NCBI GenBank assembly: GCA_003344405.1
Contig: NOWV01000128.1
Span: forward strand, 62,001 to 126,000
DNA length: 64,000 nt
Direction of reading: 5' to 3'
Source: Trichoplax sp. H2
Taxonomy: Eukaryota
Positions 1 to 23,562 of this stretch are shown here, piece after piece. The notes beneath the pieces are model-generated. The model saw only the letters and a program-made list of their open reading frames with translations, was not told where the DNA came from and made no database searches. The position numbers and the translations under genes were made by a program. Each line of letters opens with the position of its first letter. The stretch's first letter is position 1.

Positions 1-3000
1 TGGAAATTGCATTACGAAGATACGACCATCTTCCAAAGCCTAATTTATTTTATGTTTACACAATTTACACAGTTATCATCGATGACAATAATTATCCAAG
101 GAAGCTCAATTATCACTACAATAACAGTAACATGATAAATAACTTTCTTACTTGATTTACAGTATTACCAAATGTTTGCGAATTCAATTTGGACTCAATT
201 GCATTCTTCCAACCAAAATCAGGATTTAAGAAAGGTTTTAACTCAGAAACCTTAGTACCATCGAAAATAGCATCTAAGTAGGACCAAATGTTTATTAAAA
301 AATTTAGTGCTGTAAAGAAATTGAGGCATAAATTTTTACTGCTATGGTTTTGTAACCTAACTTCGTATACTTGCATATCTGTGTTACGGTTTGAGCATTA
401 TTAAAAGGAAATATTAAGAGATATCCATGTATGAAAGATGTAGTACGGTATATCTTACAAGTATTATTCGCTCCGTGTGGCTCTATCAAGTATATTGTAC
501 AGGGTATATCAAAATGGAATTATTTATTTCTGTCTTACCTCTCTGACAAACAACTTTCCAGACAGGCTTAAAGCAGCTAGTATAAAACAAGCGCAAGCCA
601 TATCGCGAAAAACGAGCTGATAAGCACTTTCGGAAGTAGCTTGGTGTGTTGTAAGAATTTTCAACGGTAGTACCATCCAGCCACTTACCATATTTTGCTC
701 CCACATAGACACGTGAGTACCATGTTTTGAAGTACTTATTAACAAGTTTAGCTTCCGTAGGATCCGACAATATTGGTAAACGGCCATGATTACATTTGCA
801 CTTATATTGAGCAATATGCCAGTTTGTGTAATGATATGGACGAAAGGCTTTATAGCAATGTTTACCAATTAATTTCCAACCCTGTGGACAAGCTACATGT
901 ACATACAAGATTTAATATTTTGGTTGCTTAATTCAAGTTACCATTACCGGTAATTAAGATCTGATTAGCAGATCGGGTAATTTTGGAGAACGTGTTATTA
1001 TTAACAAATTACTCATAAATAATGTGATTAAAGCTACTTCAACTTACATGATTTGAAAACTCTGGATAGCTGCAAGGGATGTAATCCTGCCAAACGCTGC
1101 TCTGCAAAGACTTTATCATCCGAGAAATTATCAATGATTAGATCACTAGGCATCGTGAGTTGATTTCCTAGTGCCTAAAGTAATGAATTTACAAAGCATG
1201 AATAGGTTTAGCTAAGTTTGCTATCAGTAAAAATTTCTTGATTGATAGTATGCTCTTAAAATAATTACATAGTATATGATTATACTAAAATATAGCATCC
1301 TATCAAAGTCGCTAAATCCAATTAGCTGACTTATCCATTTTTACCAATAAATTTCGTGGTGCAGCTAATTACGATCACTGCATAAACTTATTTTAGCATG
1401 ATAAATTATAACTCAGTATTATAGCAGTATACCATTGTATGTAATTATGACTAAGTCTAATAGTATCAGAACTAATATCTATGTTGTTTCTTTATCTTTG
1501 CTTGCATTCAATTCACATTATATGATGCTTATGTACTTTATATTTCTGCATTGCATTTGTACTATCCTTCACATAGGTTGCACTCTACTGTTGATTAGTA
1601 TAACAGTAACTCACATTCCCAAATTACAGTTTGAGACTCAAAATTCTTTGAGTTTACCATTAATTCATTACAGCCTGTCATCAATTGATTTCAAGATTTC
1701 AATCTTAGCTGTATACTAACTTAGATGAATTTAATCAACAAAAAAATAAAATTAAAATTAAATTAATAGCCTGATCGACACTCGAGGGCTTAGCCACACC
1801 CGAGGTCATAATTCGAGGACAATTTAGTATGCTGATTATTTTGACGCATGCGTCCATTAAGCGGAAGGTATATTTCTTTTCACGATATAGTTCCGCAAAT
1901 TTTCCTTTCTAGATATTATTTGCCAGCCGGACTAGAGATTTCTCCGCCTTTACCACTCCCATCTATTATTTAAAACTAATATTGAATGCGATCTGCTTTT
2001 CTTTTTTTTTTGTCACTTAATGAACAGTAAAAAGGATACGTCCGCGCATTGCAATCGATCGCTTAAAAATTGCAGAGCTATAATCACCTGGAATGATTTC
2101 AGCTAATTATGGCACAGTTGCCATGTATAAGGAATAAAGTGATAGTATGCAATGTAGAACTGTACGTCTTAATAAAGTAACTATTGATTATAGCTCGTAT
2201 GATGAAATGGCTCACCTACCCATATGAGCTATGTAAGGTCGTAGCTGATAGCCATACTAAGTATTATTGCTATTTGAGCAATCTACTTTTAAGATTAATG
2301 ACTCCTATACATTATCTAGACGAGGTATAGAATTGACGGAAAGGAAAAATTGCTAAATAGTACTTAAATTAAATTCAGAAATTAAATTAATCAAATCATT
2401 CTTAGCAAAGTGTGCCAATATTTTTTTATTACTATATCATCATTCAAATTTTCTTGGTTATTGTACAATTCAGCTAATGACGAACGTCACTGATCGTAAC
2501 TAGTTGCTTAACCTATAATTTTTTTAGAAATATTTATTGAGTAGTGCTTATTTGCTGTTGCAAAGTATGGAGATGTCTTAAAAAGTCACGTAAAGAGTCA
2601 AAGGAGTAGGATGCAGCTGCCGTTAATATAGACAAAATTTCATTCCTCAAGGGATGTGTCCATTTCTGTGATGCTAAAGCTTATACCTATTCTAGATGTG
2701 CAAATTGGCAAAGACTGACTAAAAATACTATTAGTCATAGGTCGCTAATTGCTGTACAAATTTTTTGAGGGATCTTATTTTACATGGAGTGACTTTGCCC
2801 GTATGAGAATGCATGGATGCTAATAGTTTTTACTCTGTTAATATTTCATATCAACAAATACTTCCAATTATACTTTGCTATTAGCAATGCTGATATTGAT
2901 TTGTTGATACACGTAATTATTAACTAAGCATAATATGGCCTAGTGTTGGCTTAATATTTACTTTCATAAACATAAAATATCTCAAATGCTATGATAAGGG

Positions 3001-6000
3001 TGGAGGAAGTAAAAGGCGGATTCGGATATTGTCGGTGAAATTCTCAATTAAATACTTTGCACCTACTTCCCGTAGTACTGAGGCTTACATTCTTTTAGAG
3101 TACCATGTACCAAATTGAGTCTATATATATAATGCATGGTAGGAAGTGCAGTACACTCAATGAAGAAACTGTTAATGTTATACTTCATATAGTCAAGATG
3201 TTTGTATCATTATAATATCTTTACAATAAATAGTAAAATATCCTTTCGCGTTAAGTTTAACATAACTTAGATAAAACATTTGCTGCAAGTGAGGACTTGC
3301 AGTTATTGAAAGAAGACAATCAATGATTTATATAATTATTAATCTCATCTGAAATTCTGAGTCAGATACGCGAGTAAGATTAAATTTTAGAACGCTAACG
3401 TAATTATAAGCTAGTGCGTATATATATTTACGAAGAGAATTTTGTTAAGATCAAGGTTCAGTTCTATATCAAAAGCAATACAGTACATAAAGTGACTTAC
3501 CAACTGCGCATCGTAAAAGAAGGAAAATAACGCCTTGTAGTCTTCAATAACGGTAAAGTCTCGAAGAGAATTATTGCCAGTGGTAAGGAAAGTGGCCGCT
3601 AAATTAGCACTGTCCTGTAACGTGAATTGATACGAAAAAAACCATGGATTTTCCAATGGATCACTAAATGCAACACCGAATGCTGTGCCTGGATCGGCAT
3701 CCCATAGTGGTGGAATTAACACAGTTGGATCCCGCAGAGGATTATTAAAATCTGGTGTTTGACGTAATGCATATATAGTTTGACTTTGGGCTAGTTCAGT
3801 TTGACGATCCGCTAAACATGCTGCACTAACGAATTGTGGTATATCGACTGGACAAGTATGGTTACTACGAGGCAATCCAACCAATTTATGATCCTTTTTA
3901 GATTCGATAAGTAAATCAGCTGTTTATAATTGTAGAGATAAAGAGCTGTTATTAGATAAAAACACAGCAAATTGGTCTTTGATACGATATTAACCAATTC
4001 GGAGATTGTTAACATAATATATTGTTTAAGTACCGTGATGAGTATACAACGAATACGAATATCAACATATGATTAGCACAGCTCTATATATTCAATAGGT
4101 CTAGATAGGATAGAGCCATTTCTTCACTTTTTAATAGCATGATTGATTGTATAATCAGGGTCATTGCATAGTTACTGTAGTCACTTAAAATGAAACAATC
4201 AATTGGTTTTGCTATAGTCTGATACTATCTTAAACTTTATATTTATAAGGGTGAAACGTCAACATTGCATAGAGTTTACTTATCTTATTTTAAGCAAGCA
4301 AACGATATTTTAACGATACTGCCGAGTTAGCTCGACGATGGATAAAATGTAATAGACTTTGCAAATTTGATGTAATGATGTTTAGATAATTATCATACGC
4401 GCAAAGGAGAAGCCTTCTATTTTACTTCAATCAAAATAAACGCTTAAGAAATATAGCATAAAGCATATACATATGAATTTATATAAATGAATTTATATAT
4501 AATGGCCTGTAAAATCAATAATTATTAATATAAACACTGAAAAGGACAATAAAAATTAATTAAAGTAAACGCTGAAGTTTCTAACTGACCTATTGGTCTA
4601 TATTCTTGATCAGAAGAAGTCACATCACTTTTATTTTACAAGGATAATTTAAGAAATGAATTAGGTAACTAGCTCCAAGATCTATACATATAATAATTAA
4701 TCTGATAATTTGATAAATGGATTATTTAGTTAGGGACCAATCGTAGCATTGAGAATGAAATCGATTGATGATAACAAATAATTTATAGTCCATAATTTAT
4801 TATAAATCGTATGTAATCATTAAGAACTTCCGTATCGCGTATATTGTCTTTAATATTATTTTTACTGATTCTGTTTAGTGTTGCAATTGAGATAAATCAA
4901 GATTGTTACAAAATTATGGAGGAGTCATGATCAACGTGAATATTTTAAGTAATGCTATGATTAAACTACAAAATTATAGACAATAATCACTGCAATAAAT
5001 TATTCCATTGCCGAAGCCTTGTAAGGATATTTATAAATCAAGTACTATGATTGTATAGTTGGCCAATATGGCATTCTACTTACTATTATCTTGGCTTTTG
5101 AAGAATTGGCTGTTAAAGAAGCAATCTGAATAAATTCCAACGCATAAACATGTTTCTGGTAAGATGCAGAATTCACCTTTACCACAGCTCTGACGGCAAA
5201 CAGCTAAATAGATTGAAATTTTAGTTTTCTTAAATTTCTTGAATTAATACACATAAGGCGTTAAAATTTAGCGGTTTGGGAATTCTAAACTGTTAGCGAT
5301 GACAAAGACTACTACATGCGTAGTGATAATGGAATGCTTTAAATTATTGACTTTTATAATCGAGATTAAATCAACTATGAGTTTAATATTATCCAAATTT
5401 TTATGAATTGTTATAAGTGGCTTTTCTTTATACGATTAATCAGGTATAGAATGGACTGTAATGTACTGTACATTAAATGCTCTATCATAAAGCAATAAGG
5501 TCCGCACCAGCTGTGTTCATGGCATAATAATATAAAGGTTCAGTTTTCGATTAATTTAAATTTTCTACTAGATTAATTGCCAGTATGGTAACTGTTACAG
5601 AGTAAGTTAACTTTTCAAATAAGTTCACGTTTAATCCATGCTTCATATTCTATATAAGTCAAATAAATTATAGACAGCGCCATACAACTCCTTCACTATA
5701 GTTTTCTTGCACCGTTATCGTAACGTCTCTTATATTACTTTTTAATTTTACAACAACATTTTGCAACGGATCCCATAAATATTACATTGCAACTTAATAC
5801 TATAATGTCTGGCAATGCATATATAATACAGTAATTTACAGCAAATCGATCAACTACAACTATCCTGTATCATATAGTCGGTACCGGATAAAGTGCAATT
5901 ATGAGCTTGTGGCAATTTAAAGATCATAACGGTCACTTACAGAGTAAGATCATTACATGAGGTTAGCTAATTTATGAATAGTATCGTGTCTTTGAAAAAT

Positions 6001-6767
6001 TAACATATCGCATGCATTGCTATTCAAAGTGCATGAAATATCACTGCCTTGACATAATGACAAATATATTCTGTTTCTAAAACTACTTACGTGTAAAACA
6101 AGGATCTTCGCCATAAATTATTCCATTAGGCCTTGACCAACCCTCACAACATTGAGGATCTTTTTGATTTTTTATGCTTAAGTTCTTAATGATGCTATTT
6201 AGTCTTTGACCATCGCTGATTTAATTTTAAATGAGTAATTAAATAATCATAGGATACATAGGATCTGGCATAGTATCAAACTTAAAACACAGAAAAGATT
6301 TTTACCTCTCCACTTCGCAAACATTGTTATTGAGAAAGCCAGCGATGATACTTGCAATAAAAGGAACATAAATTATTACTTATTCCATATATCTAATCAA
6401 ACTGTCTATTTTTCTAAGGATATTTAAAAACTGATATAGAATTAGCAACAAGTTGTTCGTACATCATAAAATGCCCACAATTAAATAAATCAGCTGATCA
6501 CAATGATGTAACTAAATTTAACAACGTGATCTATGTAGAGATATAGATAGTGTGTTTCGTGTCTCTTTAGTTTTTAAGACGTGAAATGCAGTTTTTACTC
6601 GCTTTGGTTTAAATCTCCAATTATATCACTATAGAAATAGTATGAAATACTTTTTTTGCACCCTTCTTTTTGCTGTATAACTTCCCCTACCTTGTTAAAC
6701 GCTCGTATTGTGATGAGGGTAGTGGCAAGATGGCAAAGATGGCTATAAGAGCCAATACAGACTTCAT
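1..6767 (-). CDS. Secreted lipoxygenase paralog A: signal peptide, CCxGW/NIM-EGF head, LOX domain with inserted C-type lectin-like domain; 3' end runs off the window
   Basis: Frame-compatible GT-AG exons: 6767-6691 (MKSVLALIAIFAILPLPSSQYERLT), 6350-6306 (IIAGFLNNNVCEVE), 6215-6091 (QCCEGWSRPNGIIYGEDPCFT), 5203-5084 (PVCRQSCGKGEFCILPETCLCVGIY), 3919-3501 (TCPVDIPQ..RQTELAQSQTIY), 1174-1048 (DDKVFAEQRLAGLHPLQLSR, LOX motif), 892-539 (CTLD), 273-152, 39-1 (ALEDGRIFVMQFP). Near exon-for-exon homologous to the complete paralog at 14632-23449. Confidence 0.88.
539..892 (-). CDS. C-type lectin-like domain exon of LOX paralog A (354 nt, phase 1-1)
   Basis: CPQGWKLIGKHCY...A..KC...GRL...YVG...WLDGT...CL...SC....VVCQ pattern; tag acceptor at 893-894, gtaag donor at 537-538. 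Confidence 0.9.
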
Positions 6768-9700
6768 TTTGAGACAACGAAATGAATCTGATCGTTCACT
6801 GTGCAACCTAATCAATTCAACGTGAGAATTATTAAGAAGTATCAAGTTGTTTATCAGTTTTTGACAGCAATGATTAATCAGCCTTAATTATTTGTTAATA
6901 GTGCAATGGATTATGATGACAATGTGATTGACTTAAAACAATTAATAAACAATTATTCATCATTGTGCTCGACATCGCTTCAATGAACACTATGTTAATA
7001 TTGATTTAACTTTTCTACAATGCTATGAATTTTTCGATCTTATTTGATTCGCTGAAATTATTTTACTTGACTTTTTGTAACCAAAAGACCACTTTGAAGA
7101 AGATTTAGATGGTAAATCTTATAAGCATTAATAATATCAGGTTTAAATAATACTTTCTTAATAAATACGTAGCCTACAGGCAATACAGATGGCTAGACTG
7201 CTAGAATTTAAGATAGATAATTGAATCCATAATTTTTATATGCCTTACTTCAAGATTTCGTTTAATTATCATCACAATAAAATTATATAATAACATTTAC
7301 TATTATCAAAGATACATTTTCGGCTAGAGAATAAATAATGGAAAAGACTAGATTTAAGAAATTATTATTTATCAAAGTATGATTTACAGCCATTAAAAAT
7401 TATAAGCGCTAAAACATAACTACGTAAGATATGGTAATGCACATGGAGCATAAAAATTATAAAGAATTTTTGCCCCTATTCATAAAAATGAATATTTAAA
7501 TTAAGGGATCATTAAAGGATCCTTATATTGATAATTCATTATAATTAATTGGATTATTAGTTTTGTTTCACTAATTAATGAATGCTTTGCTAAATCACAA
7601 TTGTTACGGTAATAATGAAAAAACCGTTCGGGGGCAACTAAATGCGGCAGTTAATATTTAAAATAAGATGCATCGTCTATAAACATATTTTCGAAATTTG
7701 AAGGTTAGGATCCATTTATTTTCCTAAACTTAAAACAATAGAAACTATGATATTAAGTCACTAGGAGTGATTCTCTTGGAGCAAGCCAATGTGCTATCGT
7801 TTCCAAAATACTTCTGATAGTAAAAATACCTTAGTACGACTTTTTACAAACGATTCTAGAGGTATAAATTGGGGTATACTTTGGAGTGGGTATAGTCTGG
7901 GCTGTTACACAGGTTCTCATTTTTTAGCATCCTTTTATAATTGGTGATATTATAGTCATATCATGGTTTTATATTTTAGCTAAATATTTACAGCGGTTAA
8001 TTGAAGCTATAAAAGTATAGCTAAAGTAAAATTGTTGCAAGAATACAGATAATTTTATTAATTTAATCTAGCTTTCATTTTATGATCTATTCTTAGTGTA
8101 TGGTACTGTTTTGCATAAACGTTGTATAATGGAATAGTATCATAATAATTAGTATCACTACTACGTAGTTACTAATAAAGGAAACATTAGAGTCGTCTAA
8201 TGTTTTAGAGGAGAGCGAAATCATTGTACAGTAGATTATAGTTGACTTCTATTACCCCAAAATACTACCATATTAGTTGCGCTGCCAACAATTTCTAATA
8301 AATATTCAAACTTAACAAGATTTATTCATTTGCTAGATTTTTCGTTCTAATCAATAATTTTCAGAGCTCGATCAATTTAGCTAGCGCTAGAACCAGTTAT
8401 GTAGATAAATAAACGTGATTGGTGCTTTTAAGACTCTTGAGATAATATTTTGTAATAGATATCCTAAGATGATCTTATTCTATAATAGCCTAGTAGTGAC
8501 TAAGTCATGGTGTTATGATATATGAGCAGTATTAACTAAATATCATTCTGATACCATTACCTACTATATTTGCTTTTAAATATTAGTGGGCTAATAATTA
8601 TTTTATCAGGTAATTCATTCTGATAGAAAGACATTAAAGAGATTTCGTATAATGCTATTTATACAATGTAAAATTATAGATTATTGCATGTAACGATAGA
8701 AATAGATCTTAAAACGCAAAGCTTAATGGCATGAAGTTGGTTGATAATTTATTCCCAAATCTAATAAACTTTCATTCAATCCGTCATACCTTTACTTTAA
8801 TCACACTCTATTTTCTAGTTTTAATCACTCTGAATCATTTTTTAAAGCCTCCTTTTATTCCTTTATGCTTATGCTGAAATACATCTGAAGATATTGTTAC
8901 TGCTGAAATACTTTTTCTGTCCACGTAAAACGAAAGGCAGTAATTTTAATTAAACAATATCACAGATATCAATCTAATCTACGAGACGCTATAAAAATAT
9001 GAAGCTGTGAAGCTTACTCAAAATATGCTTTGACATCGAAGTAATATAACGCTAATTCTACATCTATCAATACATCTATCGATCATCACAAAACTTGACT
9101 AAACTACATTGCTTTTCCTAAAAGTTCCAATAATAGCTTATTTTTGAGTTTGTAGCGCCAAAATTTTCATCATTTATTTCTAAGAGAAAAAATTAAAAAG
9201 AAGTATCAATGCGTTGTATACAATAAAATATTTGCTTTTACCATGTTGTACTAGGACTTTCGTTAGCTAATTTAAAGGTTAAAGGTTAATATTTCATAAT
9301 GCTTGTAGTATTTTCATAATGATTTCAGATACTGATATGGAAAGACTGGTAAATTTCTTTTTTACATACCTTTCCCTATAATACGTATGATTAGCTCATT
9401 TTGGCGATGATAGTAAATAAAGCATAAAATTAAAGAATTATTGTATTTTATTCTTATATAGCTCTGATTCGATAAATGATATCATAGTGAATACAGATAA
9501 ATAATGAGCCTAGGATGGGTTTTGTAATTTTTAATTGAAGTATTGAGGGCAAAAAGTCAATATATCTAATGTTGACTAAGAGATATATGGCTACTAATTG
9601 TTTCTACGAGACAATGAAAATATTTCTTAAGTGCAAAGCTACATAAAATTGTCTGCGTATTCTGCCTTTAGTATTATATATTCAATATGAATGTGCTATG

Positions 9701-10640
9701 GGAATTGACCTTGGCCTCTAAACGATAAGATCAAGGACAATATTATAAAATTGTGAACGACAAACTGATATGCTATGTACGGTACCGAGATCTCGGAACA
9801 GTAGGAGTTAATTAGGTGCTTGCTTTGCTAGCCCCCATCAGGCAATGCTCGCTTGTTTTGTTCTTAATTCTATGACGGGATATTGACTAGATTGCTAGAA
9901 GAATTCTTTAATTTAATAGTCACTGAAAGTAGTTTGTTTACATAAAATTCAATAAATATTCTTGAGAGATTAAATGTTATACCAGGAGATCCTACGTTAA
10001 TGATTAATTAATTAATTAATTAATTATGAAAAAAATAAAGTTGTTGCTAAGTGTCACTAACCAGCTTCGTGACAAAGATAACGTAAAACAAATCTCTAAA
10101 TTACTCTAGTCTCCAGGATTCAGTATCCCTAAACTACCTCACAAGAATTTAGACGCCTTTGCTTCTACGTTAAAACAACTATATAAGTCTTCTTTTATGC
10201 AACTATCTGCCGAGCTTAACCCTTCGGCAGCAGCTATCATGTATGAGTCATAACGGTTCATGAAATTTAGCTCATATTGGATAGCTAAATTAATACAGAA
10301 ATTATTCATAATTTTGGACATGTACCGAACGATTCTAGATAATTAGACTACAGTATGTCCACACGCAGAATTATTTATAGTATCACCTATAATTGAATAT
10401 CTTCAGGATATTCATCATAAGCGTTACAAGACATAACGCTATAATCAATTACTATTGGTTACCTTATAAGAACTTTTACTACAATGCAGCATAATTTACT
10501 GTAACAAATAATAACTACCGCAGTTCTTACTGTAAGTCATCATTAGTTATCTCCATGTATGAATGTTAAACACTAAATTTAGTCATATACTTTTCACAGT
10601 GGCTCGTACCGTAACACTAAGATATTATGTTTGAACCATG

Positions 10641-11189
10641 TGTCACAATTTTACTTCTGCGACAAGGTAACGTACAGTAAAAGTCTATAAGTAGCTACTG
10701 ACTTAAACGCCCTTCTACCTAACTTTAAACACACACAGCAAAATACTGTAAAGATAAAACTTTTATTAGCAAAGACACATCTACAACTTTTTACTACCCC
10801 ACTCAACTCAAATGTTCCCGTTTATATAGGAAAAGTCTAATTTGTAAACAACAGTATTATTATTATACCTTACTAGGAGAAACATCTCGAAATGAGATGT
10901 TCGTTACATAGCTTTTCTATCAGTAAACATTTTGTATTTCTTACTCTTACTTAATCTTAATCTAAGCACGTAGGTTGTCTAATTCAACTATCATCAACTG
11001 GAACTTGAATCATCTTACTGCTATTTATCACACAATAACAATCAATAACAAATATGTAATGAACTATCACAAACAACATCCACGTTAAGGCATTACTTAT
11101 CTTACCTAGAACTACAAATATGGATATTCTCCGTACTAGCTACTACTGTACTTATTAAACTATCCCAATGACAAGGCAACACCGTAACA
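10641..11189 (-). mobile_element. Solo LTR (549 bp) with 5-bp target-site duplication
   Basis: Termini TGTCAC...GTAACA; CCATG on both sides (10636-10640 and 11190-11194); minus strand has TATATAAA (~10821-10828) followed ~60 nt later by AATAAA; homologous inverted copy at ~57285-57567. Confidence 0.8.
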
Positions 11190-14100
11190 CCATGTAAATA
11201 TTAGTGTTAACAAGGCATCTCGAGTAGTTGTATCAATTTGCAAGATACTAATATCATTTCTAGATGAATGCCCAATATCTTTTTACATCTTAATAGTTGA
11301 TGGATATCATAAAATTGAACGAAAGCCTTTCACATTATTACCAGTGCCATAGATAAATTCCAATTCTCTATTAATTACTATAAATTCACTTCTAGACTTA
11401 ATTATTTTCAAGCGCAGGCGACTTATGAGTTTCTGACATAAAATTCTAAACTTTTAAAAGATTAATAGTTTGAGAATATCGACAGTACGAAAAGTATTTC
11501 TTGATATTTCGGAAATAAGCTAATAGAACACCTGTTGCTAAGTAGTACAGTTATTCTTTTAAAATAATTGCTAATAAATTGCTTGATGTAATCTCTTATT
11601 TCAAACGTATATGTTACGGTCAGTGTATAAGCTATTATTGCCATGGAACGATTCATAACTCGACAAACTCCGATATAATTTGCTACTAGGTAGCAAATAA
11701 ATGGGCTGCATGAATAACCCGTCCGTAATACGTACTTGTTACGGTTCATCATTACCGTAAATAAAAAAAGAAATATTTATTCATATTTTTTCTAAAGAAG
11801 AGTTGTGATATGTTAAGTCGTTAATGGATTTCCATTAATGAATGTGTGATAAAGATTGTCACACTTGATTAATGAGTTATTAAGTAACATGTCTAGTTGA
11901 TTTGTTAACTGGAGTAAGAGTGGTAAACACTCAATATTAATTTACATATATCTATTCTATACTGACTGTCATAAATATATGTTACACAAAATCAAGTATA
12001 TTGTAAATAGAATTATGCTGATAGAAAATGGCATAGGTATATAAGAGCGTGCCTTTAATCATAGAAGGAGTTCTCTTATTACATTGCCTAGTAATATATG
12101 TTATCGTTCGAATAAAGAGGATTTATGAAGTTATCCGGATATACACACTGCTGAATAAGGTCTTATACTAAGCTGGTCGAGTTAGTGAAGCTTATTAGCA
12201 ACGGTATATTACGGTAGAGCGGTTACGTTAGGAATAAAATTAGTTACTTGTACCACAAACGACGTTACGACAGAACTATATATTGATAGTTTTTTTATTA
12301 CTCGTAAGTAAACAATTGAGCAGCCTAAAATTTGTCATGTAACAACTGTAAATTGCTAATAATAAGACACAACCAAGATTGGGAGAGAAAAGAGTTCGAA
12401 ATAGCCTGTTATTAATTCCGCGTCCGTTAGCTCAAGGAATTTAGCTTTTTTAATGAATAACTTAACATGGCAATGGAAGAGGCGAAAAGAATATATGCTT
12501 CTGTTTATTCATTTGCATATATAGCTATTTTTACCTATGTTCTTGTATTTATACAGCTCGTCAGGATTTCTATTTAGCATCTACTAGGATAAATACATAG
12601 AATTTGCTCTTTAACTTCTTAAGTTCACTTTACTATTCGTGGATTCGACTGCCACTTGATTGAAAGTTGTAAAGAATTTTGTTGATGTATTTACTGGGGC
12701 CTGATTGTGGCACAAAATATACCATTGTTTCGATGCTTAATAAGCAGCAGTCCTATTATTTCACTGTAGATCAATGTCTATATTCGACCAGAGAATTAAT
12801 GATAATTTACTTATATAATTAATCAAAATGGGGCAAAAATTTTTTCATGCACCGACACTGATGTCATGCAATAGAGCCTACAAATATGATGTACTGGTAT
12901 GACAGTATTCATTTTAGGAACTAGTTAGAGGTGATTGCATCCGCAAACAACTTCAGGCACTGAAATTCCACGGCCCATATACAGTATTGAATAGTTACTG
13001 GCCCTTAAAGGATGATACAGTAAATGATAACTTATAATTACGGCTTAAAAGATATGCACCACTTGCAGGAGGTATTAACTGAAATATCAGCTTACGCCCC
13101 TCTAGAATCATACAGGCACGTAATTTTCTCAGCATCTATCATTATCATTATTGATTTATTTATCTTGGCTAACTTTATGAATGGCTGAGTAAAGATTTTA
13201 AGTTTCGTCCTTTTGGACAACATTACTTGAAACAGCATTTTGTAGGACTATTTCTGGTAGTCATAAAAGTACACAGAATCCTGAATATTATATGCTCTTT
13301 ATATTTTATTTCATGCGAATTATCTTACTCAGTTAGGACAGGTATATATTTGTTTATGATATAGGTAAGGTTAGAGTCTGAATTTTTATTTAGGTACGTA
13401 GTATTCTCCATTATACTGCGGTATATAATGATTATTTTGCTAAATGAAATATCTAAAATTGACGGTAACATTCTCGTATAAGCGAGTAGCAAACAAGTAA
13501 ATTACAAGGATAAAGTTTTACTAAATATAATTTAATAAAACTAATGTCCTCAAGCTGCTATAAGAAAGAAATGGATACCTTTATTAGTATTAGAATATAT
13601 GGCATTAAAACTAGTCTATTTAATTGTCTCTCACTTTTAAACTAACGACAATTACCAGGTTTAGGACACTAAAGCAGATTTTGTCATTCCGATTGTGACT
13701 AGGAGGAGGTAAAACTAGTAAGATCCATGCTTTGACGTTTTAAGATAAAGATATCCATGACAAATCATATGTTATCGTATGAATTAAATTTTACCTTAGG
13801 AAAATCTAACATCTTAGCATAATAAATTATTAAATTAGGGATAGCGTCAATACGATATGGTGCTAAGTAACTGTCCATATAGGCAATTAAAATATATGCT
13901 TGTATTACGATACAAGGACCACAAGTTAATAAAATTACCAATTCGATGAGTGGAAGGAAAAAAATTTTACGGCGGACTAATTATACTTGAAGAAATGATG
14001 GCATTTACCAGTTAATACAGAAAGTGAAATTTTCTACGAAATAATTGGATGCGCACTATTCATACCCAACTAAATTTTGCAGTAATAGCGAATGAATAAA

Positions 14101-14631
14101 GAAAGAAACTCAATAAATATGAGCGTATCTGTTATAATATTAAGTACGGTAATTTTGCGTAATATATTAGAATTAGATCGATATGATGTTAATAATAAAT
14201 CCGTGTCTGGAGCAAAAAGGATGCCATACGGCAATTTAATAATTATTCTGTAATATCATAGTGAACTGGTAGATTACATCGCAAACGTAGAGCTATAATG
14301 CATAATACACTATCATTCTAAATTAGATAAGTCTATTTTAACCTTATATGATTTGATAATTTATGCTTAACTTAGATAGTTCCTACATTTTAATGAAGTA
14401 AATTAGCGAAGGTAGATAGTTAGTCTTATTACAAGAGTGGAAGCTTGTAGTTTTTTCTGAAATATCGCGGTCTATATTCTGTTACTTATTCATAAAGTAA
14501 ATAAGATGTAGCTTTAACTGATATGTGAATATAGCAACAATGCTACTGCTGATTTTAAATATGCCCGTACTATCGATGTTACAATGTAAAATTATGTTAT
14601 ATTGCTGTTAGAATCCATATCTGAAATGGTC

Positions 14632-17600
14632 TTAACTACTAATGCTATTTGGTACATTTTTTGGATGAAGGTACTTATAGCTCAAATGGCCATTGGCAAC
14701 ATTGGCGTTATTTCTAGCCACTAAATTAGCTTGAATGGTATCAATGCGAGCCTTGAATTCGAAGACCAACTCTTCAGCATCGCTATCTGCCATGCTAGCA
14801 GCATAATCGAACAAACTATCGAAATGTAATGAAGCCAAGTTGAAGCCAACTTCTACATGAGTCTAGGATAGAAGAAATAAATATTAGAGATAAATTTATT
14901 ATTGCGAAATATTAGTACTGGAAAGCTATTGAGGTAAAGTAAATGATGACCCTATAGTACTTTAGTTGTGGTTAATTATTATTATCTTGTTCAAGAATGT
15001 AGAGTGTTACTAATTATAATTGTAATTATCCTGAAAAATTTAGTATCAAACCTTGTACTATTGTTTACAGTTAAACTCATAAAATTTGAAATTTTGCCAA
15101 TATTGTTTGTCTACTAACGTCGCAGATTCTAATGATAAATGCTTATTGGATAATTATACTTACTAAAGATTGGGTCTTGGTTGGGAATTTTATTGGGTCA
15201 AATCCTGTTACACCGTCCACGTTATAAATTTTACCAGGCATATTAGGTAGAAAAGTGCCATATTCAATGACTGGAAAATTAACTGCTGCATGTTGGCAAG
15301 AAGAAGACCAAACGAATTTATGTAATACATCGATGACTTGAGCTTTTGTAGTGAAAGATTGAGGGAAGTCGCGTAACTACATATTTAAGCGAGACGATAC
15401 CAGTTTAAGTAAGTAAGTAATGATAACGAATTATAGTTTATTTGTAGTCTCTGAATACTATTAACATCAGTTCATATATTGCAATAAAGTTTAGCTTTAA
15501 AATACATAGCTCTAGGTGACTCAAAATGACACTGGATACAGTTATTACTCACTTTGCCTTTGCCTGAGTCTGGAGTACCTGTAGCACCTAAAGCAATTTC
15601 GTTTGCCCAACGTTGCATTTCATGATCGGCAACTACAGTTGCATCATCTACATAATATCTGAGAAAATTAATTTGTAAAATTAGAATCGAAGGTTATTGT
15701 ATTTGTTCCTCCAGGTCAGTTGTCTATTAAACTTACAGGTTAACGTAATCTCGTATAAAATCACCAATAGCTTTATATAATTCTAGCCCATCATCTCGGT
15801 AAGGAAAGAAAGGAAGTGCTTGCTTATCCAATAATCCAGATTTCTAACTCATGATAAATATAATATATAGCGACTTAAATTAGTATATACTACAAAACGT
15901 TGTACTCAATTAATGGTAGACTGTTCAGTGATTCGATAATACAAATTTTTATATCATTATAAACTAGATATTGCTGCTTAAGTGCCCAGAAGGTGATGCT
16001 TTTAACCAAAGCTAGCAGAATCGTTGTCTTACTAAGCAATTACTACAAGCAGCTTCAGTTATAATCCTATTTCTTAATATAACAGTTAGGTCAATTTTTT
16101 TTCGGTAGTGAACGATAAGTACTTCAATATTTTGCGTTTAATATATTGTAGCACAAAATTTATTTAACTCGTTAAATACTAGTTAAGCTCAAACCTTTAA
16201 TCGATAATTAGGGTCGTGATTATTAAATGACCAGGTATTAAATCCATTATTTATAACGTCATTTTGTCCCTTGAATCCAACAGTCAGGATTCTGTCCACT
16301 CTACCACCGAGTGGTATTAAGCTTAATTCGCCAACTTTATTCGTAGTCAATGTTCCTCTACAATGTTGGCGAATAAGTTGGCCCACAGGATGCGTTATTG
16401 GTATATTTCGTTTACCTGATACACATAAGGGATCGTTGACTAGATGAGTATGCAATAAATGTTCTAATAATTCAGCGGTAGTAAAAGCGGACATTTGAAC
16501 TAAAATTTTAGCAATGGTCCAGTTATCGCCATCATCTGGTGTATATACTGGCGAATTTTGAGTACTATTGATCTGAATAGCAACAGGCAAAAATTCTCCA
16601 TGGTTGACGTCCGGATTTGAAACAAAGATTGCAATTGGCGACATTAAAGTCATCATAGTTCTACCATCATTTGGTATTTCTTCAAAATCGGGGCTGGTTC
16701 TTATTCCTCTAAGCTCAGGAAATTCTGATACGTATACCCTACCATCTTGCACAGCCTTAAAAGTATAAAAAATAGCAAATTATATTTATGCGCAAGCATA
16801 CGATTGAGATTTAGATAGAACTGATAGGGAAATACAGTAATCTTTATTTACTTACATCAACAAAGGTATTACTATAATAAGGCGAATTAGAAGCCAGTTT
16901 GGATCGAATTGCTTTCTTCCACTTGAATGATGAGTTTAGAACGGATTTTAAGGTTGAGATCTTAACGCCATATAAATTAGCAGCTACAGATGATACATAA
17001 AAATATTAATAGAATCCAATCATGCTATCAAAAATCATTGAGAAATAGCATGATACCAAAATAGCCCTTATTTTTATATCAAGTAGTCACCTTTTTGACA
17101 TAATATTTTTCTCAAAGGCCAGAAACAGAAACTGTATCTTAATTTTAAGCCAGATTGAGTAAATCCAGCTGTTAAACATCGACGGAATGCACTAGGTTGA
17201 TTGCTGGCACCCACAACTGGAGTGCCATCGGGCCATGTACCGTTACCGCCGTCAACATAAACGGGGACAGAAGCAAATTTATATCGCTTATTTACTTTAG
17301 CGGCTTCCTGTGAATCCGATAGATCTGCTAGATGGCTGATATGGCATTCGCAGACATGTTTTGCAGCATTAAAATTGCTGTAAGGGTATCCACGGAACAT
17401 TCTATAGCAATTCTCTCCAATTAACGTCCATCCTCGTGGACAAGCTAAAGAAGAACAGACATTGCTTTAAAATTGATCGTGCTCAAGGCTAACTGAAAAT
17501 AATTGAAAGGCTAATATTATTGTAGTAAGGCCCAAACTATACTTTAAATGAAAATTCTACTAACTACCAATACTTTGGTTAATGTAAAGAATGTTTTTGG

Positions 17601-20600
17601 TTATATATCAGGCAGTATACCGAATCTATACAGTCACCTAAAGAAGATCAAGAAAGCATGATACTTACGCTTGCCGATAACGCGCTTCACGGGGAATGGA
17701 TTTAATCCGGCAATTTGCTGCTCTGCAAATACACGATCATCTTGCCACATATCAATAATTAAATCATTGATATTAGTTGGGACATTTCCTTGGTCCTACG
17801 TATGTGAGAAAAGCATTACAAGAATTGATTCTCAATCGATAGAAAACATTACAATCATTGTCTATTATCAAGTGAGAATGTCGTAAAGGTTCCCCATTTT
17901 AATACTGATATTAGAGATTACTTCTATACACTTACCACATGAAACATATAGAAGAAGAAAAATAATTCTCGCCAATCTGAAATACTAGAAAATTCCCGGA
18001 CAGAATTATTTCCTAGACTTAAGTAAGTCTGGACTAATTGTCCGTTGGTTCCCAATATAAAAAAGTATTGATTTAACCAAGGTGCTTCAAACGGGTCACT
18101 GGCTCCAACACCAAAAGCCGTTGGTGGATCGATGTCCCATAATGGAGTAAGTAATACATCTAAATCACGACCAGAGTCATTAAAATTAGGCGTAGTACGG
18201 ATTTTATAAATAACACGATTAGTAGCTAATTCTGTTTGGCGCTGGATGGTACAGTTGGGGCTAGCATTTTGCGGCAATGCTACTGGACAGGTTTGGCTAG
18301 TCGATCTTTTGCTATGTTGTTCAGCATCGCGATCGAATAAATTATTGTCAAAATTTTCTTCACTTCCAACGTCGATATCCGCTGCCCAACGTGTGAATTG
18401 ATCAAAAGGCGATCCTAAAGTTTCAATAAATTCAAGGAAAATTTTGCAGAATGAAAAGTTGATGCAATCCGTCTTGAATTATGATACTCTCTATCTGATC
18501 TAAAAATCATGATCTCTGCATCTATATCCGTTCGTTATAGTAAATGAAATATGACTGATATCGCCGCAATACTTAAATTAACAATTACTGACTTTTGTAC
18601 CTAACGTAGTCTAAATTTAGATAAGATGAATTATGGAAGCATCATACTAGAAAATAGTAGAGATGGAATATGAATTAAGAGTGCAAGTTACTTTTTTTTC
18701 CATTCGTCGCGTTATAAGTTGTTGATTGACATCCTCTATAGCCCAAGACGCATAAGCACTTATCTGGCTTATAACAAGATTCCTTATTGCCACAGGGTAC
18801 CTTGCAAGTTGCTAATTATAGAATAAATGAATCAATAAATGACTAATGAATTGAGCACATTATTTTAGAATCATTAAGCAAGTAAATTTCAAGCTATTGA
18901 GATTTTTGATCGCAAAACTGAGACTAGAAATAGTCCTACGCAAACAAAAATGGTGGAAAGGATTGAATCATGAGTGTTAAAAGTTGAGGTAGATTATATT
19001 ACAGTTACGCTTAATTAGACGAAATTACACATAAATCATCTATTTTATCATAAATACCATAGCTTACAGAAAAAAAGGAGATCGCAATCAATACGATACA
19101 GAAATTTAACGCTGCACAAGATTGTCTATTTTAAGGCTACGCTTTTGATTGGTAATTGAATTTTAGAAGTACAAAAATTTTGCACTATTGAGACTGAAAT
19201 TCACTGCAGAGTTTAGTCATCTATTTTCTTCCGGATTATTGTACAAAGTGTGAGCACCGCATACTATTGCACTTACGAATAAAGCAAGGTGCATTTCCTT
19301 CTCGATTACCGCCGGCCCTTGTCCAGCCATCGCAGCATCGAAATTTTGTAGCCCTAGCAATATAGTCTTCCTCATCAAAGAATCGGTCGCTGATGCTATG
19401 GTAAGCTCGCCTAAAATAAATTTTCAAAGTATGACATTTATATTACTTTCTATTATTAATTCAATGCCAATCAATATCACGAATTTCGCGTATTATTTCC
19501 CACTCCACTAAAAGTAATTATAAATACTTGGCAAACTGTAAGCTTAAATAAATCTCGATATCAGGATTAAGCTCAGCCTATATGTACTATAGAATGGAAG
19601 TTTAAACTCTGAGATATTATCGAAGGTATTCAATACTAAATCATATCTGTGTCATGATAAAGGTAAGAATAAGTTGGCCAATTTTTCACAGGATCCTATT
19701 ACAACATACGATTTGACTTTTGCTAAGTGTAATATTATAATTAGCATGTTACTCACACTGTAACGCTGTAATATTTATTTCTTCTTAGTCTAAACTGTAA
19801 TTATTGTAGTGGTTATCTACCTAAAACTGAACTTACTGCTTGAGCTCATTTCAGTAAATGATCACTTTTGTTTCACTAATGATCAATACTACCACAGTTA
19901 TTACCGCATTTATTGCTACCGCTTATCGATGTCTAATCTTAATTACACCGGAAGCTGTCCAGTTTACTACTGTCATTTAAACTAGATACATCTAACTTTG
20001 CAAAATCTGCGATCCAATTTACTGATTAACCTGCCAATAGAATTTATTTTAATCATGATTGATTATATGCTAGAATAAGATATTTTACAATATCATCAGT
20101 ACTATACCACTGTGCAATCAACTCTTGCGGCAATTTTAGCCCCTTTTCTATACAGATAAAAGTAAATAATTTGGAATGGTGGTTTACCAGTTTGACGCCC
20201 ATGTTAATAAATTTAGTTTAGCCAGCATACAATGGAATTATTTACATGGATAGTGTAATACGTTAAATTTTAGGTAATGCATGCACATATTTAGTGAATT
20301 TTATGGCATTTACCGGTATTAATGCATGTTGTAAACTAATTACGATCGATAATAATCGATACTAGTGCGGTATAATATCCGCATATGCTAGTTATAATTA
20401 GAATTATCCATTAAATTGTTTTCAAATTTTAATAATACTAAGATCAATAACAGTAAATTATAATTATAAACTTTTATACGAAGAAAATCGAGAAGAACAT
20501 TAAAGCTAACATCAAAATGGTTGATAGCTTCAATTAAAAACTTACTTGGCAGTATAAGAGCAGACATTGACATTGACGGAACCACTACTATTAAGACAAT

Positions 20601-23449
20601 GAATAAATAGATGTTATTATTTAACATTTCCATCATCTATAAATAATAACTTTGTCTTCTATTTGTAATAGATCAATTTTAATTGATAAACTATAAATGA
20701 AAAATTATTCTTTGCGTCACCATTGAATTATTAAAATAGGCTATTTTACGATGAAGTTGAGAAAAACAGTCGCTTATAAAAGCCTAACAAATCTGATAAC
20801 AGTCACCAATTTTACAAATATACAGTATTCACAAAAAGATCGTTTGTAATTAACATTCAATATCATTATCTATTGCTAATGTGGAGCATTAGTAATCAAA
20901 TAGATAAATTCTACAGTATTGCTGTTATTTTGAACGGTGGTAATTACTTATTCCGGAAAGCAGAAATTATTTGGCCGATGTAACTAGTTATTTGCAAGTA
21001 TAAGTGGCGTTTTAGCTATTATTACTGAATAAATCCAGAATTTTCTTCTATGATGTGTAAATTAATTGGGCCAATGTAACAAGTTATTTGAAAATATTTA
21101 CTGTGATTTCACTCTTATGATAATATACTCGTAGGATCACTATTTTTCTTCCATGACAGGTAAATTAATTGGCCAATTGAACTGGTTATTATCCGCAATC
21201 CATATTACTTTTCAAATTATCGTGTTTTCCATTTTATTTTGCTGATACGTCCTTAATTAGCGGTTTTAAAATTTCAGCTGTATCATGACGCTGCAGCAAT
21301 TAAGTGAAAAATAATACACGGATTTAAGCTATGCTTTAATAATTTTAACCACTTTCTACAGTTGGCTTTAGTAGTAGTTTTAGAGTTCATTCCGCGTACT
21401 TGACGACTGATCTTGATTTGATTCATTACAATTTAATGTGTTCTAGAATAATACTTATGTATCATTTACTACAAATTGATGATAGTTATTATTTCGAAGT
21501 ATTGTTTGAAATAAATTATGAATAATGATCTTGTATCATTTAAAGTAATTGGATGATAACTGTTGTTCCAAATTGTTTTTTGAACGCGTTATACAATAAT
21601 AATTATGAATTATTGAAATCATAAATGCAATGACTGTTGTTTCCAAATATTGTTTATGCACATTAGGGAAAAATGAAGATAACGGTATAGACAATCATAA
21701 CATTCTATGCATAATCTAAATTTAGTTATAATTATTCTCGCATCGCGGTAAATGATGGAGTAAGTTAAAAATAATCTTAATAGATTAATATGAATCGACA
21801 ATATATGGAAATATTATGTTATGAATAAATAATGTTAATTTGTTTCCATGATTTATAAAGGTGTTGTGATTTCAGCTAATTATAGTATTATTGTGTTTTG
21901 AAAATGTAATATCGATATGTAGTAATCACTATGTAGTAGAGAATAATCGTTTATGCTTAATAAAGTAATTGTGGATGATAGGGGTTAAAACCATTCATTA
22001 AAGAAATTAAAGTAATTCTAGATGACAGGGTTAAAACCTTTCATTACAGAAAATTTTATTGTTATAACTTATGCTCAATGTAATTTCAATTTAAAATAAT
22101 GTACTGGTAATTCGATGATATCTAGAAATACCTTGGTGGGACGTAATAAATCCAAATCGATAGCACCGATTCAAGCTAAGGATAGCAAAAATCTCTGAAC
22201 TAATAAATTAAGTAAACTTTTCGACTATGTCTAATTTGCACAAAATAATTTGCATTAAAAGTTTTAATTGCGATCGATAGATAAAACATTTATCTTTCGA
22301 TTTCTCTTCTCTGGTCGGAGTTATTACTTTGAGCTTTTGATCATTACATAAGATCAATTAGTTCACAATTAGAATGTGATATTTATTATCATTAATTACT
22401 CATAAGAATTGGTTTTAATCACAAATGATCTCAATTAAAAAAAATTTACTGGTCTATATTAGTCCAGTTTGACATGATTGTCATTTGCAAAAAAGTTATC
22501 TAGTAGTGATTTAAAATCTTATTTATTGCCTTCAGACTCAAGTTGGCTTTGATCAAGTACGATACCTATCTAATCAGACTTGATATAATCTGGCTTTTTA
22601 GACATTAAATGATATTAATTGGATGCATTTTGCTATCATTTCCTTATCTGGTATGAAATATCCAATTACAACTTCTACTATATTTAGTGGGCAAATAAAA
22701 AAAGGGTAGTTCCGTATGCTATCCATATCAATACCTAGCTATAACTTCTACCTTTTTAGCTATCAATAAAGCTATTTATATTCGATTTATTCACTGGCCT
22801 AATAAAAAATAGGATAATTCTGTATGCTATCCTTGACAGTAGCTAAATATAAATTAGATGATTATTATATAATCGAGAGGCCAATTATACGCTGCTTTGA
22901 TTTCATTTTGAAGACTACCTCATTTCTGTTTTATTGTCTGCTTTTACCAACAAAATTATCTTTTAGCCATAATATAGTCATCTTTCAATAACAGTTACTG
23001 TTATTTGGAACTGTGTTAACTTTAAAATTACCTTTTGTGTAAAAATTGGTTAGTTAAGAAGGTATAAAAATAGGATAGCATCTTAAATGCTATCGCTAGT
23101 TGTTATCATCGTGATAATTTCTAATCAAACTTTCATCCAGATTCGAGTTCTTTTTATTTGCTGTTATTTTCCTACTAATTTCTGCTTTCGTTATAATATT
23201 AAGGTGCAATTTTAAAATAAACTAGACCACAATTTTGCTTTGGTGTTAACCACAGCTTCGTGTATTAAGTGATTAGACTAAAGACGCTTCTAAAATGGGG
23301 CTATTAACCTGGCTACAACAAATAAGAACAATCATACTAATATAACTAGATCGATCTTTCTAAGTAGACAATTTGATACTGTATAGTAGACTTTACCTTT
23401 GGGAAGCAGTGGCTAAGGCTACTAAGAGTAGAAAGTATCCAAGATTCAT
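14632..23449 (-). CDS. Secreted lipoxygenase paralog B, complete (~870 aa): signal peptide, CCxGW/NIM-EGF head, acidic spacer, LOX domain with inserted C-type lectin-like domain
   Basis: Exons 23449-23397 (MNLGYFLLLVALATASQ), 19410-19277 (RCCDGW..PCFI), 18811-18692 (PTCKVPCGNKESCYKPDKCLCVLGY), 18414-17936, 17795-17669 (WQDDRVFAEQQIAGLNP), 17444-17091 (CTLD), 16983-16856, 16755-16195 (PVAIQ, WTIAK, HLLHTHL, HPV), 15843-15737 (PYRDDG), 15658-15553, 15376-15164 (QHAAVNF), 14862-14632 (YLHPKNVPNSISS*). All phases are compatible (2613 nt). His/His/His/Asn iron ligands are present. Confidence 0.92.
17091..17444 (-). CDS. C-type lectin-like domain exon of LOX paralog B (354 nt, phase 1-1)
   Basis: CPRGWTLIGENCY...AAKHVC...HLA...WPDGT...CL...FC....ILCQ; same length and phase as paralog A. 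Confidence 0.9.
20940..21195. repeat. Degenerate ~100-bp tandem repeat (3 copies) in intron 1 of LOX B
   Basis: Recurring ttggcc(g/a)a(t)tg(t)aac..gttatt at ~20971, ~21067 and ~21169. Confidence 0.45.
21961..22055. repeat. ~47-bp tandem duplication
   Basis: taaagtaatt..gatga.agggttaaaacc.ttcatta.agaaa occurs twice. Confidence 0.7.
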
Positions 23450-23554
23450 GTTATCCGTTATTTTCTCGCTGAGTGCTTGCTATGATGACCAATCACCCGG
23501 TCGTTGTGGAACAACGCAGAGGATGTTTATGAAAATGACAGTGGTTAGATCCTG

Positions 23555-23562
23555 TATTTATA
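23555..23562 (-). promoter_or_regulatory. Candidate TATA box of LOX paralog B
   Basis: TATAAATA on the minus strand ~105 nt upstream of the ATG at 23449; weak evidence in AT-rich DNA. Confidence 0.45.

Follow-up and report, generated by a model that had tools for sequence, protein, structure and literature searches.

Two tandem Trichoplax genes for lipoxygenase-fold proteins with a signal-type start, a cysteine-rich head and an inserted lectin-like domain, from a clade lacking the first ligand histidine

The stretch analysed here, hereafter referred to as the window, consists of 64,000 nucleotides from the placozoan Trichoplax sp. H2 (assembly GCA_003344405.1, contig NOWV01000128.1, positions 62,001 to 126,000), and is AT-rich, with ∼30% G+C. 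The locus described below is made of two tandem, same-strand paralogs (labeled A and B) of a modular lipoxygenase (LOX)-fold protein, predicted to be secreted, in which a signal-type segment and a cysteine-rich head precede a LOX core that itself contains a C-type lectin-like domain (CTLD). To my knowledge, animal lipoxygenases are treated as cytosolic enzymes, composed of a PLAT domain plus the catalytic domain, and a ‘true’ LOX is recognised by its five metal ligands. Paralog B is 100% identical to P0001, an 884-amino acid NCBI protein of Trichoplax sp. H2 with the automatic name ‘Allene oxide synthase-lipoxygenase protein’, which tblastn placed at 23449..14635 on the minus strand; the 196-amino acid exon frame at 16189-16779 (minus strand) is also 100% identical to it. 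The features of paralog B are as follows, with residues numbered as in P0001.

14531..23530, minus strand: paralog B, whole transcription unit; 13 exons and 884 codons, spliced contigs in 4 of 4 runs, joined exons giving P0001
23397..23530, minus strand: exon 1; 81-nucleotide (nt) 5′ untranslated region (UTR; 23450-23530), then codons 1-17 with the hydrophobic signal-type segment, ATG at 23449
20546..20587, minus strand: exon 2, 42 nt; completes the signal region and opens the head with ‘NVC’
19277..19410, minus strand: exon 3; EMI-like portion of the head, with CCxGW
18692..18811, minus strand: exon 4, 120 nt, phase 1-1; 6-Cys EGF/NIM-like module
17936..18414, minus strand: exon 5; an acidic linker leading into the first part of the LOX core, with the pair Cys159...LPQ...Cys171
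17669..17795, minus strand: exon 6; ‘AGLNP...KRV’ segment of the LOX core, up to the insertion point
17091..17444, minus strand: exon 7, 354 nt, phase 1-1; C-type lectin-like domain in a single exon
16856..16983, minus strand: exon 8; clade-specific ‘GxxW..L...LN..F.W’ segment after the insert
16195..16755, minus strand: exon 9; LOX core, with Ala573 (16474-16476) replacing the first ligand His, and His578 (16459-16461)
15737..15843, minus strand: exon 10; LOX core
15553..15658, minus strand: exon 11; LOX core
15164..15376, minus strand: exon 12; HAAVN motif, with His766 (15290-15292) and Asn770 (15278-15280)
14531..14862, minus strand: exon 13; C-terminal ...PNSISS, with Ser884 (14635-14637), stop TAA (14632-14634) and 3′UTR

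Part of the stretch 14500-23600 is present in 18 of the 21 public runs listed, and four of these from 4 studies (X4, X7, X8 and X10) were used. Only X4 is recorded as RNA, the RNA type of X7, X8 and X10 being a guess; the contigs lack introns and have a depth of 138-570, with a depth of 0-30 for the introns themselves, which is an RNA-like pattern. Introns with low or zero contig depth were not counted as evidence. Spliced contigs cross every one of the 12 B introns in each of the 4 runs, with one contig per run per intron, and all 12 have GT..AG ends on the minus strand once ambiguities of 1-2 bases are resolved. The depth is equal at all 12 joints in X10 (233.5) and in X8 (138.7), which fits a single contig in each (2813 nt and 2764 nt, respectively), and the 13 joined exons translate exactly to P0001. 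The exons for the signal peptide, the Cys-rich head, the CTLD and the LOX domain of paralog B form one mRNA; this was the first check proposed in the first-pass annotation, a set of notes made from the letters of the window. The refuting case named there, in which the head or lectin exons sit on transcripts of their own, is thereby settled for paralog B.

The 81-nt 5′UTR contains no ATG and includes an in-frame stop, so translation begins at the hydrophobic N-terminus. The X4 and X8 contigs both stop at 23530 with loose letters; those in X4 (13 letters) are unexplained, and those in X8 resemble what I take to be a template-switch oligo, which would mark the 5′ end of a capped mRNA. An extra 83-nt skip (18988->19072), with GT..AA ends and 8 foreign letters, was seen in the intron between exons 3 and 4; it is found in X10 only, at a depth of 5.3, and is probably noise or a rare by-product.

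It could be argued that this gene model is an annotation artefact, with the signal/EGF or lectin exons belonging to other transcripts, and the 884-residue model being a fusion of neighbouring genes. The first two B exons are indeed tiny and distant (introns of 2809 and 1135 nt), and the older model of paralog A in T. adhaerens is a fragment of 301 residues. Against this stand the joints and the depths described above, the identity of the joined translation to P0001, the fact that paralog A repeats the exon order and phases of B, and the presence of the head-plus-core layout in cnidarian homologues as well. Since spliced contigs span all joints, I reject the gene-fusion artefact, which is exceedingly improbable.

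Paralog A lies on the same strand, and its model runs into the edge of the window.

1..6767, minus strand: paralog A, partial; a reading frame of 476 codons, truncated by the window edge; nine exons with AG/GT borders and the phases of B
6691-6767, 6306-6350, 6091-6215, 5084-5203 and 3501-3919, minus strand: paralog A exons 1-5
1048-1174, 539-892, 152-273 and 1-39, minus strand: paralog A exons 6-9
539..892, minus strand: paralog A CTLD exon, 354 nt, phase 1-1; 47% identical to the CTLD of B

The two proteins are 44.7% identical (207 of 463 aligned residues). Two exons match those of B exactly in length, namely the ones for the EGF-like unit (120 nt) and the CTLD (354 nt), and two more are equal or differ by one base. 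An exon of A is 100% identical to the T. adhaerens protein TRIADDRAFT_60388 (P0207), which equals the A head and the N-terminal part of its LOX domain. P0207 is annotated as ‘uncharacterized’, with 301 residues and no Pfam domain on record, and spans only the head and the first LOX exon of A. It terminates in an exon (2477-2512, minus strand) not used in the homology-based model of A; as it stops there, the old annotation hid the LOX homology of this gene. In-frame splicing, which had been proposed for both paralogs, is therefore borne out for B by RNA and by its identity to P0001, and for A the exons and phases shared with B are confirmed by sequence only.

At the N-terminus of P0001, the signal segment corresponds to residues 1-20, with a hydrophobic stretch (residues 6-15) of mean hydropathy 2.69 over 10 residues. 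No further 19-residue window has a hydropathy above 1.6, and the protein contains 22 Cys and 9 N-x-S/T sequons. The head (residues ∼21-116, 10 Cys) shows, in order, ‘NVCSY’, ‘CCDGW’ and a 6-Cys EGF-like unit, an arrangement that recalls heads of the Nimrod/Draper/MEGF type. Three homologues help to place it. The head of Nematostella P0169 has the same NVCSY start followed by CCPGW, and its residues 30-99 match Pfam EMI over the whole profile (E 0.0045, below the cut-off); Exaiptasia P0017 has a Pfam EGF match (E 1.8e-5); and the head of paralog A aligns weakly to the N-terminal CCPGW and EGF region of fibrillin-1 (2m74, E 0.027). These three links are weak, but independent, and lend some support to an EMI/EGF pattern. 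The likeness to the fibrillin-1 N-terminus lies in the CCxGW followed by a 6-Cys EGF-like unit; the match is nevertheless weak, P0001 has no Pfam EMI or EGF match, and Nematostella has a longer EMI-like part. The NIM/EMI-EGF assignment of the first-pass annotation thus stands as a cysteine pattern with weak homologue links, the P0001 head itself matching no Pfam family.

With extracellular-type modules and a signal-type start, a route through the secretory pathway is the natural reading for this protein. The earlier proposal that it is secreted agrees with the hydrophobic N-terminal segment and with the use of the first ATG of the mRNA, secretion itself being predicted from hydropathy.

The remainder of P0001 matches the Pfam LOX family PF00305 (E 2.5e-39), which is also detected directly on frames of the window (16189-16779, E 1.3e-13; 15143-15376, E 3.4e-7; both minus strand), and 57 solved LOX-type sequences match P0001 at E ≤ 0.01. 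The WxxAK, YRDD and HAAVN motifs are retained. A structural model was generated with AlphaFold2 (AF2) from an alignment of 116 rows. Its confidence, given as the predicted local distance difference test (pLDDT), is mostly above 90 over residues 156-320 and 428-884, and in the exon 5 part exceeds 80 in all blocks but one from residue ∼156. The best Foldseek match of this model is the PLAT-less Cyanothece mini-LOX 5med (E 9.9e-33, template modelling score 0.81-0.85, target-normalised). Judging from these profile matches and the predicted structure, the paralog B protein is a member of the lipoxygenase superfamily (PF00305 fold). It departs from the canonical animal architecture, with a signal-type segment present and PLAT (PF01477) absent; PLAT is on record for its canonical matches P0012-P0014 and P0016. 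In P0001 no PLAT match is found by Pfam, and the residues modeled ahead of the core are all helices, with no beta-barrel, in agreement with the PLAT-less LOX described in the first-pass annotation.

The CTLD corresponds to residues 319-436, within the LOX core. Pfam Lectin_C falls just short of its cut-off (22.6 bits) for both paralogs, with 17 bits for B and 21.9 bits (E 3e-4) for A. A profile built from both domains matches 90 solved chains at E ≤ 1, and all 60 of those listed are CTLD proteins; it aligns to KLRG1 over 115 of 117 positions (E 2.2e-5) and to the PLA2 receptor across several of its repeats (E 3.2e-8). The ESM Atlas gave no usable match for the whole of P0001, and for the CTLD part returned Lectin_C clusters at 0.82, under the lead level of 0.9. 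Exon 7 of B is therefore, on these profile comparisons, one that encodes a C-type lectin-like domain, and since this exon lies within the B mRNA, the earlier view of a LOX domain containing a CTLD is upheld. The domain resembles compact CTLDs (KLRG1 3ff7, NKG2D, snake-venom proteins, PLA2 receptor) in its CPxGW...CY start and WxDG motif, and differs from these in its location inside an enzyme fold and in having 7 Cys. The sugar/Ca2+ site of C-type lectins is marked by EPN/QPD and WND motifs. Visual inspection of the aligned A and B domains revealed neither: QPS or TPS stands in the corresponding places, and WND is absent. Ca2+-dependent sugar binding is thus not implied.

A symmetric, phase 1-1 exon is the classical footprint of exon shuffling. 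I considered whether the insert lies beside the substrate portal (helix alpha-2), but dropped this possibility, as the alignments put the insert after the ‘NP...R’ segment (∼257-279 in 8R-LOX), and helix alpha-2, as I take it, lies before that segment.

The metal-ligand site is where the first-pass annotation needs correction, as it held that paralog B keeps the LOX iron ligands. In three HMMER alignments (to 11R-LOX, Cyanothece LOX and 8R-LOX), ungapped from the WxxAK motif through the helix, Ala573 (GCT) lies opposite the first His of the HxxxxH pair. With hmmalign, this position is a His in 112 of 166 rows and an Ala in P0001, and MAFFT also places Ala573 there. The ‘HLLHTH’ of B contains only the second ligand, H578, and a conserved His, H583, whose equivalent is found in 114 of 116 rows (MAFFT), and which is a non-ligand in canonical LOXs. 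In the first iron-ligand cluster only H578 is therefore kept; in the second, both the ligand His and the ligand Asn are present, as H766 and N770 (HAAVN). The C-terminus falls at the ligand position, but is a Ser in place of Ile/Val (...PNSIS-S vs ...PNSIA-I), the main-chain carboxylate of which may still bind metal. Among the differing letters listed for the 4 runs, none falls in exon 9, so Ala573 is not a sequence error of the window, and a second placozoan-like fragment (P0033, 63% identical) also has an Ala at this position.

In order to identify the relatives of this protein, 2620 proteins were gathered with HMMER (E ≤ 0.001); among the best 150, from which the relatives were taken, the nearest ones are not canonical LOXs. 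A FastTree of 147 rows (with at least 300 filled columns, and five near-identical Pocillopora rows dropped) contains one group of 35 sequences, 25 animal and 10 bacterial, with a support of 97, all of which lack the first His; the five remaining His-less rows are scattered outside it. In a quick IQ-TREE of 70 chosen rows (28 from the clade, 13 canonical animal-type and 29 others), the 28 clade rows fall on one side of a branch with an SH-aLRT of 99. Canonical LOXs and the His-less clade occupy separate supported branches in both trees. The animal members include anthozoans (Exaiptasia, Nematostella, Acropora, Stylophora, Montipora, Actinia, Pocillopora and Oculina), Hydra, the scyphozoan Sanderia and the sponge Sycon, the last on a long branch and of unsure placement. 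The protein is shown, in these sequence-based trees, to belong to an old and well-supported clade of LOX homologues, all without the first His.

A MAFFT alignment of 36 clade rows has His at column 573 in none of these. The residues found are N (8), S (7), A (6), C (5), L (3), T (3), V (2) and G (2). In contrast, H578 is conserved in 33/36, H766 in 34/34, N770 in 30/34 and G442 in 34/36. His578 is replaced by Lys in Exaiptasia P0017 and P0167 and in P0041, the last of which is without the region of H766/N770; N770 is replaced by Thr in P0017 and P0167, by Gly in P0035 and by Gln in P0077. I also considered the residue before H578 as a substitute ligand for the whole clade, and rejected it, as it is Glu in 15/36, Asn in 8/36, and aromatic in hydrozoan-like rows. 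The five Hydra-type rows (P0039, P0044, P0071, P0076 and P0079) all combine this aromatic residue with a Cys at the first-His position, which could itself bind metal.

The bacterial rows (P0023, P0026, P0029-P0032, P0034, P0036, P0043 and P0046), the named members of which are from Nitrospira/Nitrospiraceae, have an Asn at the first-His position in 8/10 and a C-terminal Val in 9/10. These Nitrospira-type sequences group with the animal His-less clade, not with other bacterial LOXs. A term search of a bacterial LOX review (PMC13319228) found no mention of Nitrospira or of ligand variants.

These observations bear on the function first proposed, namely a classical secreted iron dioxygenase that would peroxidise lipids at the surface of microbes, algae or dying cells, or produce oxylipins. 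The LOX fold and its motifs (as listed in PMC5793058) are retained, together with H578, H766, N770 and a C-terminus at the conserved position, and the fact that these ligands have been kept throughout so old a clade speaks for a functional metal site. In addition, a secreted bacterial LOX exists, as the Pseudomonas aeruginosa PA-LOX oxidises the membrane phospholipids of other cells, according to the text available for PMC5764228. However, the first His is an Ala in both placozoan sequences and is absent from every clade row, and the residue found there varies so widely (A, S, T, N, C, G, V, L) that no single replacement ligand can be proposed. First-His mutants of 5-LOX and of soybean LOX-1 are reported to be inactive. 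Both ligand clusters are deemed essential for ‘true ALOX sequences’ in PMC6612559. I therefore consider a classical dioxygenase unlikely. The idea of an extracellular enzyme keeps the support of its secretory start and extracellular-type modules, but its dioxygenase competence is doubtful, with an Ala in the place of the first His of cluster 1.

Outside the metal site, the clade shares a layout. A strongly hydrophobic 10-residue window within the first 40 residues is found in 17/20 animal clade rows with a complete N-terminus, in 0/9 bacterial clade rows, and in 3/102 canonical ones; similarly, the Cys pair around LPQ at the start of the core is present in 19/20 animal and 0/9 bacterial rows. 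Pfam detects PF00305 in all 36 clade rows, PLAT in none, fn2 in 3, EGF in 2 and TSP_1 in 1. The linker from P309 (of NP) to G442 has 12-15 residues in 30/36 rows, and 0-7 in three N-terminally truncated ones. It is expanded to 132 residues by the CTLD in P0001, to 137 by two FN2 domains in Oculina P0002, and to 71 by one FN2 in Montipora P0022. One and the same linker has thus taken up two module types in different lineages, a CTLD in Trichoplax and FN2 in corals.

The closest counterparts are thus the cnidarian and sponge ‘LOX-like’ proteins of the same clade (Nematostella XP_048584002.1, Oculina P0002, Hydra XP_047133050.1, Sycon XP_065182404.1), which share the signal-type N-terminus, the lack of PLAT and of the first His, an EMI-like or EGF head, the insertion linker, and a C-terminus that is mostly Thr, Ser or Val. 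These have been named automatically as ‘5-lipoxygenase-like’ or ‘AOS-LOX’, none is characterised, and they differ from the Trichoplax protein in that a CTLD was seen in none, with FN2, TSP1 or EGF instead. The architecture, which the first-pass annotation did not recall as described, is accordingly new in part: the gene model was already in NCBI and cnidarian kin share the layout, but the CTLD variant was seen in none of the clade relatives examined.

Turning to known lipoxygenases, the canonical animal enzymes (coral 8R-LOX 2fnq/3fg1, Gersemia 11R-LOX 3vf1 and human 5-LOX 3o8y) are the best sequence matches of P0001 (E 9.9e-50 to 7.6e-44), and share the catalytic fold and the HAAVN and YRDD motifs. 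Unlike P0001, they are cytosolic, with an N-terminal PLAT/C2-like domain and all five ligands, and P0001 differs from them in its signal segment, EMI/EGF-like head, CTLD insert, Ala573 and C-terminal Ser. The Cyanothece CspLOX2 (5med), its best structural match, is likewise PLAT-less, but is bacterial, has no signal peptide or modules, and possesses the full HxxxxH pair. Secreted microbial LOXs, namely PA-LOX/LoxA (4g32/5ir4) and the fungal manganese LOX 5fno, are exported and act outside the cell that produces them, and are therefore the closest functional analogy to an extracellular enzyme; they are however more distant (E 2.2e-37 and 6.8e-17) and have no recognition modules. PA-LOX and fungal manganese LOX are reported to have complete ligand sets.

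In the titles and abstract starts returned by literature searches, no report of this gene was found (placozoan or Trichoplax LOX, LOX with an EMI domain, gene names), nor any animal case of a secreted or extracellular lipoxygenase. Ten stony-coral LOX sequences are described as ‘a separate clade’ in the accessible text of PMC5793058, where many coral LOXs end in Thr; this text, based on partial sequences, makes no mention of signal peptides or PLAT. Eight lipoxygenases, of unstated subfamily in the part available, have been reported in the skeletal organic matrix of Desmophyllum pertusum (10.64898/2026.03.24.713908), which is circumstantially consistent with extracellular proteins of the LOX family in corals. 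In cnidarians, LOX-expressing ‘putative eicosanocytes’ are mentioned in the available portion of a Clytia atlas preprint.

A second alternative is that the LOX fold is catalytically dead, and serves as a secreted lipid-binding, adhesive or matrix protein, using its hydrophobic cavity and modules. One ligand is gone throughout the clade, and Exaiptasia P0017 and P0167 have lost two further ones (Lys and Thr) and yet are retained; a coral sequence carries the same Lys and Thr replacements, according to the partial text of PMC5793058. Matrix and adhesion proteins are typically decorated with modules of this kind (EMI, EGF, FN2, TSP1 and CTLD), and the coral skeletal-matrix report would also fit. 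However, the conservation of H578, H766 and N770 across sponge, cnidarian, placozoan and bacterial sequences is hard to account for without a metal site, and as the bacterial members have neither signal peptide nor modules, the feature shared by the core is the altered site itself. I therefore consider a dead scaffold a serious alternative, but a less likely one, with chances slightly above those of the classical dioxygenase. The two Exaiptasia proteins, together with P0041, do resemble a maintained pseudo-enzyme lineage, in which the rest of the fold is conserved.

I favour a third possibility, a working but altered metal site, to which I give somewhat better than even chances, because the remaining ligands are conserved over an old clade that includes module-less bacterial proteins. 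The paralog B protein would enter the secretory pathway, and hold its metal with four of the five canonical ligands (His578, His766, Asn770 and the C-terminal carboxylate), so that one extra coordination position would be open. Its lipid substrates may then be extracellular or located in secretory granules, and the head and CTLD would hold it on a surface or matrix; the head occupies the place of the PLAT domain of other animal LOXs, and the CTLD sits in a short surface linker. The altered chemistry could consist of weak or different oxygenation, or of the conversion of lipid hydroperoxides. Rather than a textbook dioxygenase, I consider the protein more likely to be one that modifies lipids with the help of a metal, but with altered chemistry.

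Several points weigh against this interpretation. The chief caveat on the ligand claim is a discrepancy with PMC5793058, according to which only 2 of 28 LOX sequences from stony corals, none of whose LOXs is characterised, have a replacement of the first His. H578 and H583 retain the HxxxxH spacing one step further along the helix, and a shifted ligand pair H578/H583 is thus possible; if the ‘separate clade’ of that study corresponds to the His-less clade, its alignment probably counted H578/H583 as the ligand pair. The loss of a ligand His may also mean the loss of catalysis, and the three ligands missing in P0017 and P0167, and His578 in P0041, indicate that the fold can persist without a metal site. 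For every clade member, activity, metal content and secretion are predictions, and the signal peptide call was made with my own hydropathy heuristic rather than with SignalP. As for the modules, Pfam finds no family in the P0001 head even at E ≤ 10, AF2 gives a pLDDT below 50 for the head and CTLD in the full model, and the CTLD alone, modeled from a 2-row alignment, has a mean pLDDT of 35.5. Finally, the model of paralog A is homology-based, and its catalytic half and ligand region lie beyond the window start.

Taking the altered site further, I tentatively suggest that early-branching animals (sponge, cnidarians and placozoans) share an undescribed family of secreted LOX-fold metalloproteins, with a more open site of two His and a carboxylate (plus Asn), a chemistry other than classical lipoxygenation, and lineage-specific targeting acquired by exon shuffling. 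The chemistry might be direct O2 activation, or the cleavage or rearrangement of lipid hydroperoxides. Targeting would be provided through one permissive linker, by a CTLD in placozoans, FN2 in corals, and TSP1/FN2 in hydrozoan-like sequences, and the tandem pair of Trichoplax could be part of external digestion or surface defence. This broader proposal is speculative.

Elsewhere in the window, a 536-residue open frame (35094-36704, minus strand), rich in Gln, Ser, Pro and Asn, of low complexity and with no Pfam match, lies within a G+C-richer stretch (34001-38000); it probably represents a large exon that codes for part of a nuclear-type, Q-rich protein. An exon-sized frame at 55530-56012 (minus strand) matches the APAF-1 helical domain PF17908 (E 6.8e-10), placing an APAF/NLR-like gene ∼32 kb from the LOX pair. 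At 47749-48084 (plus strand) there is a sub-threshold match to glycosyltransferase family 61 (E 3e-4, 21.5 bits vs 27).

The paralog B protein is a transcript-supported animal LOX-fold protein that appears built for the secretory pathway, is joined to recognition-type modules, and belongs with a conserved clade whose members all lack one ligand His. The gene model was already known, under a misleading name; new in the literature searched are a putatively secreted, PLAT-less, His-less family with a shared module-insertion linker, and its placozoan CTLD variant. The shared linker illustrates neatly how, in nature, domains can be shuffled into the core of an enzyme. If the clade is inactive, it would represent an old family of pseudo-enzymes, widely retained for a role in matrix or recognition. 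If it is active, it would widen the range of LOX metal sites, and mean that the simplest animals oxidise lipids extracellularly.

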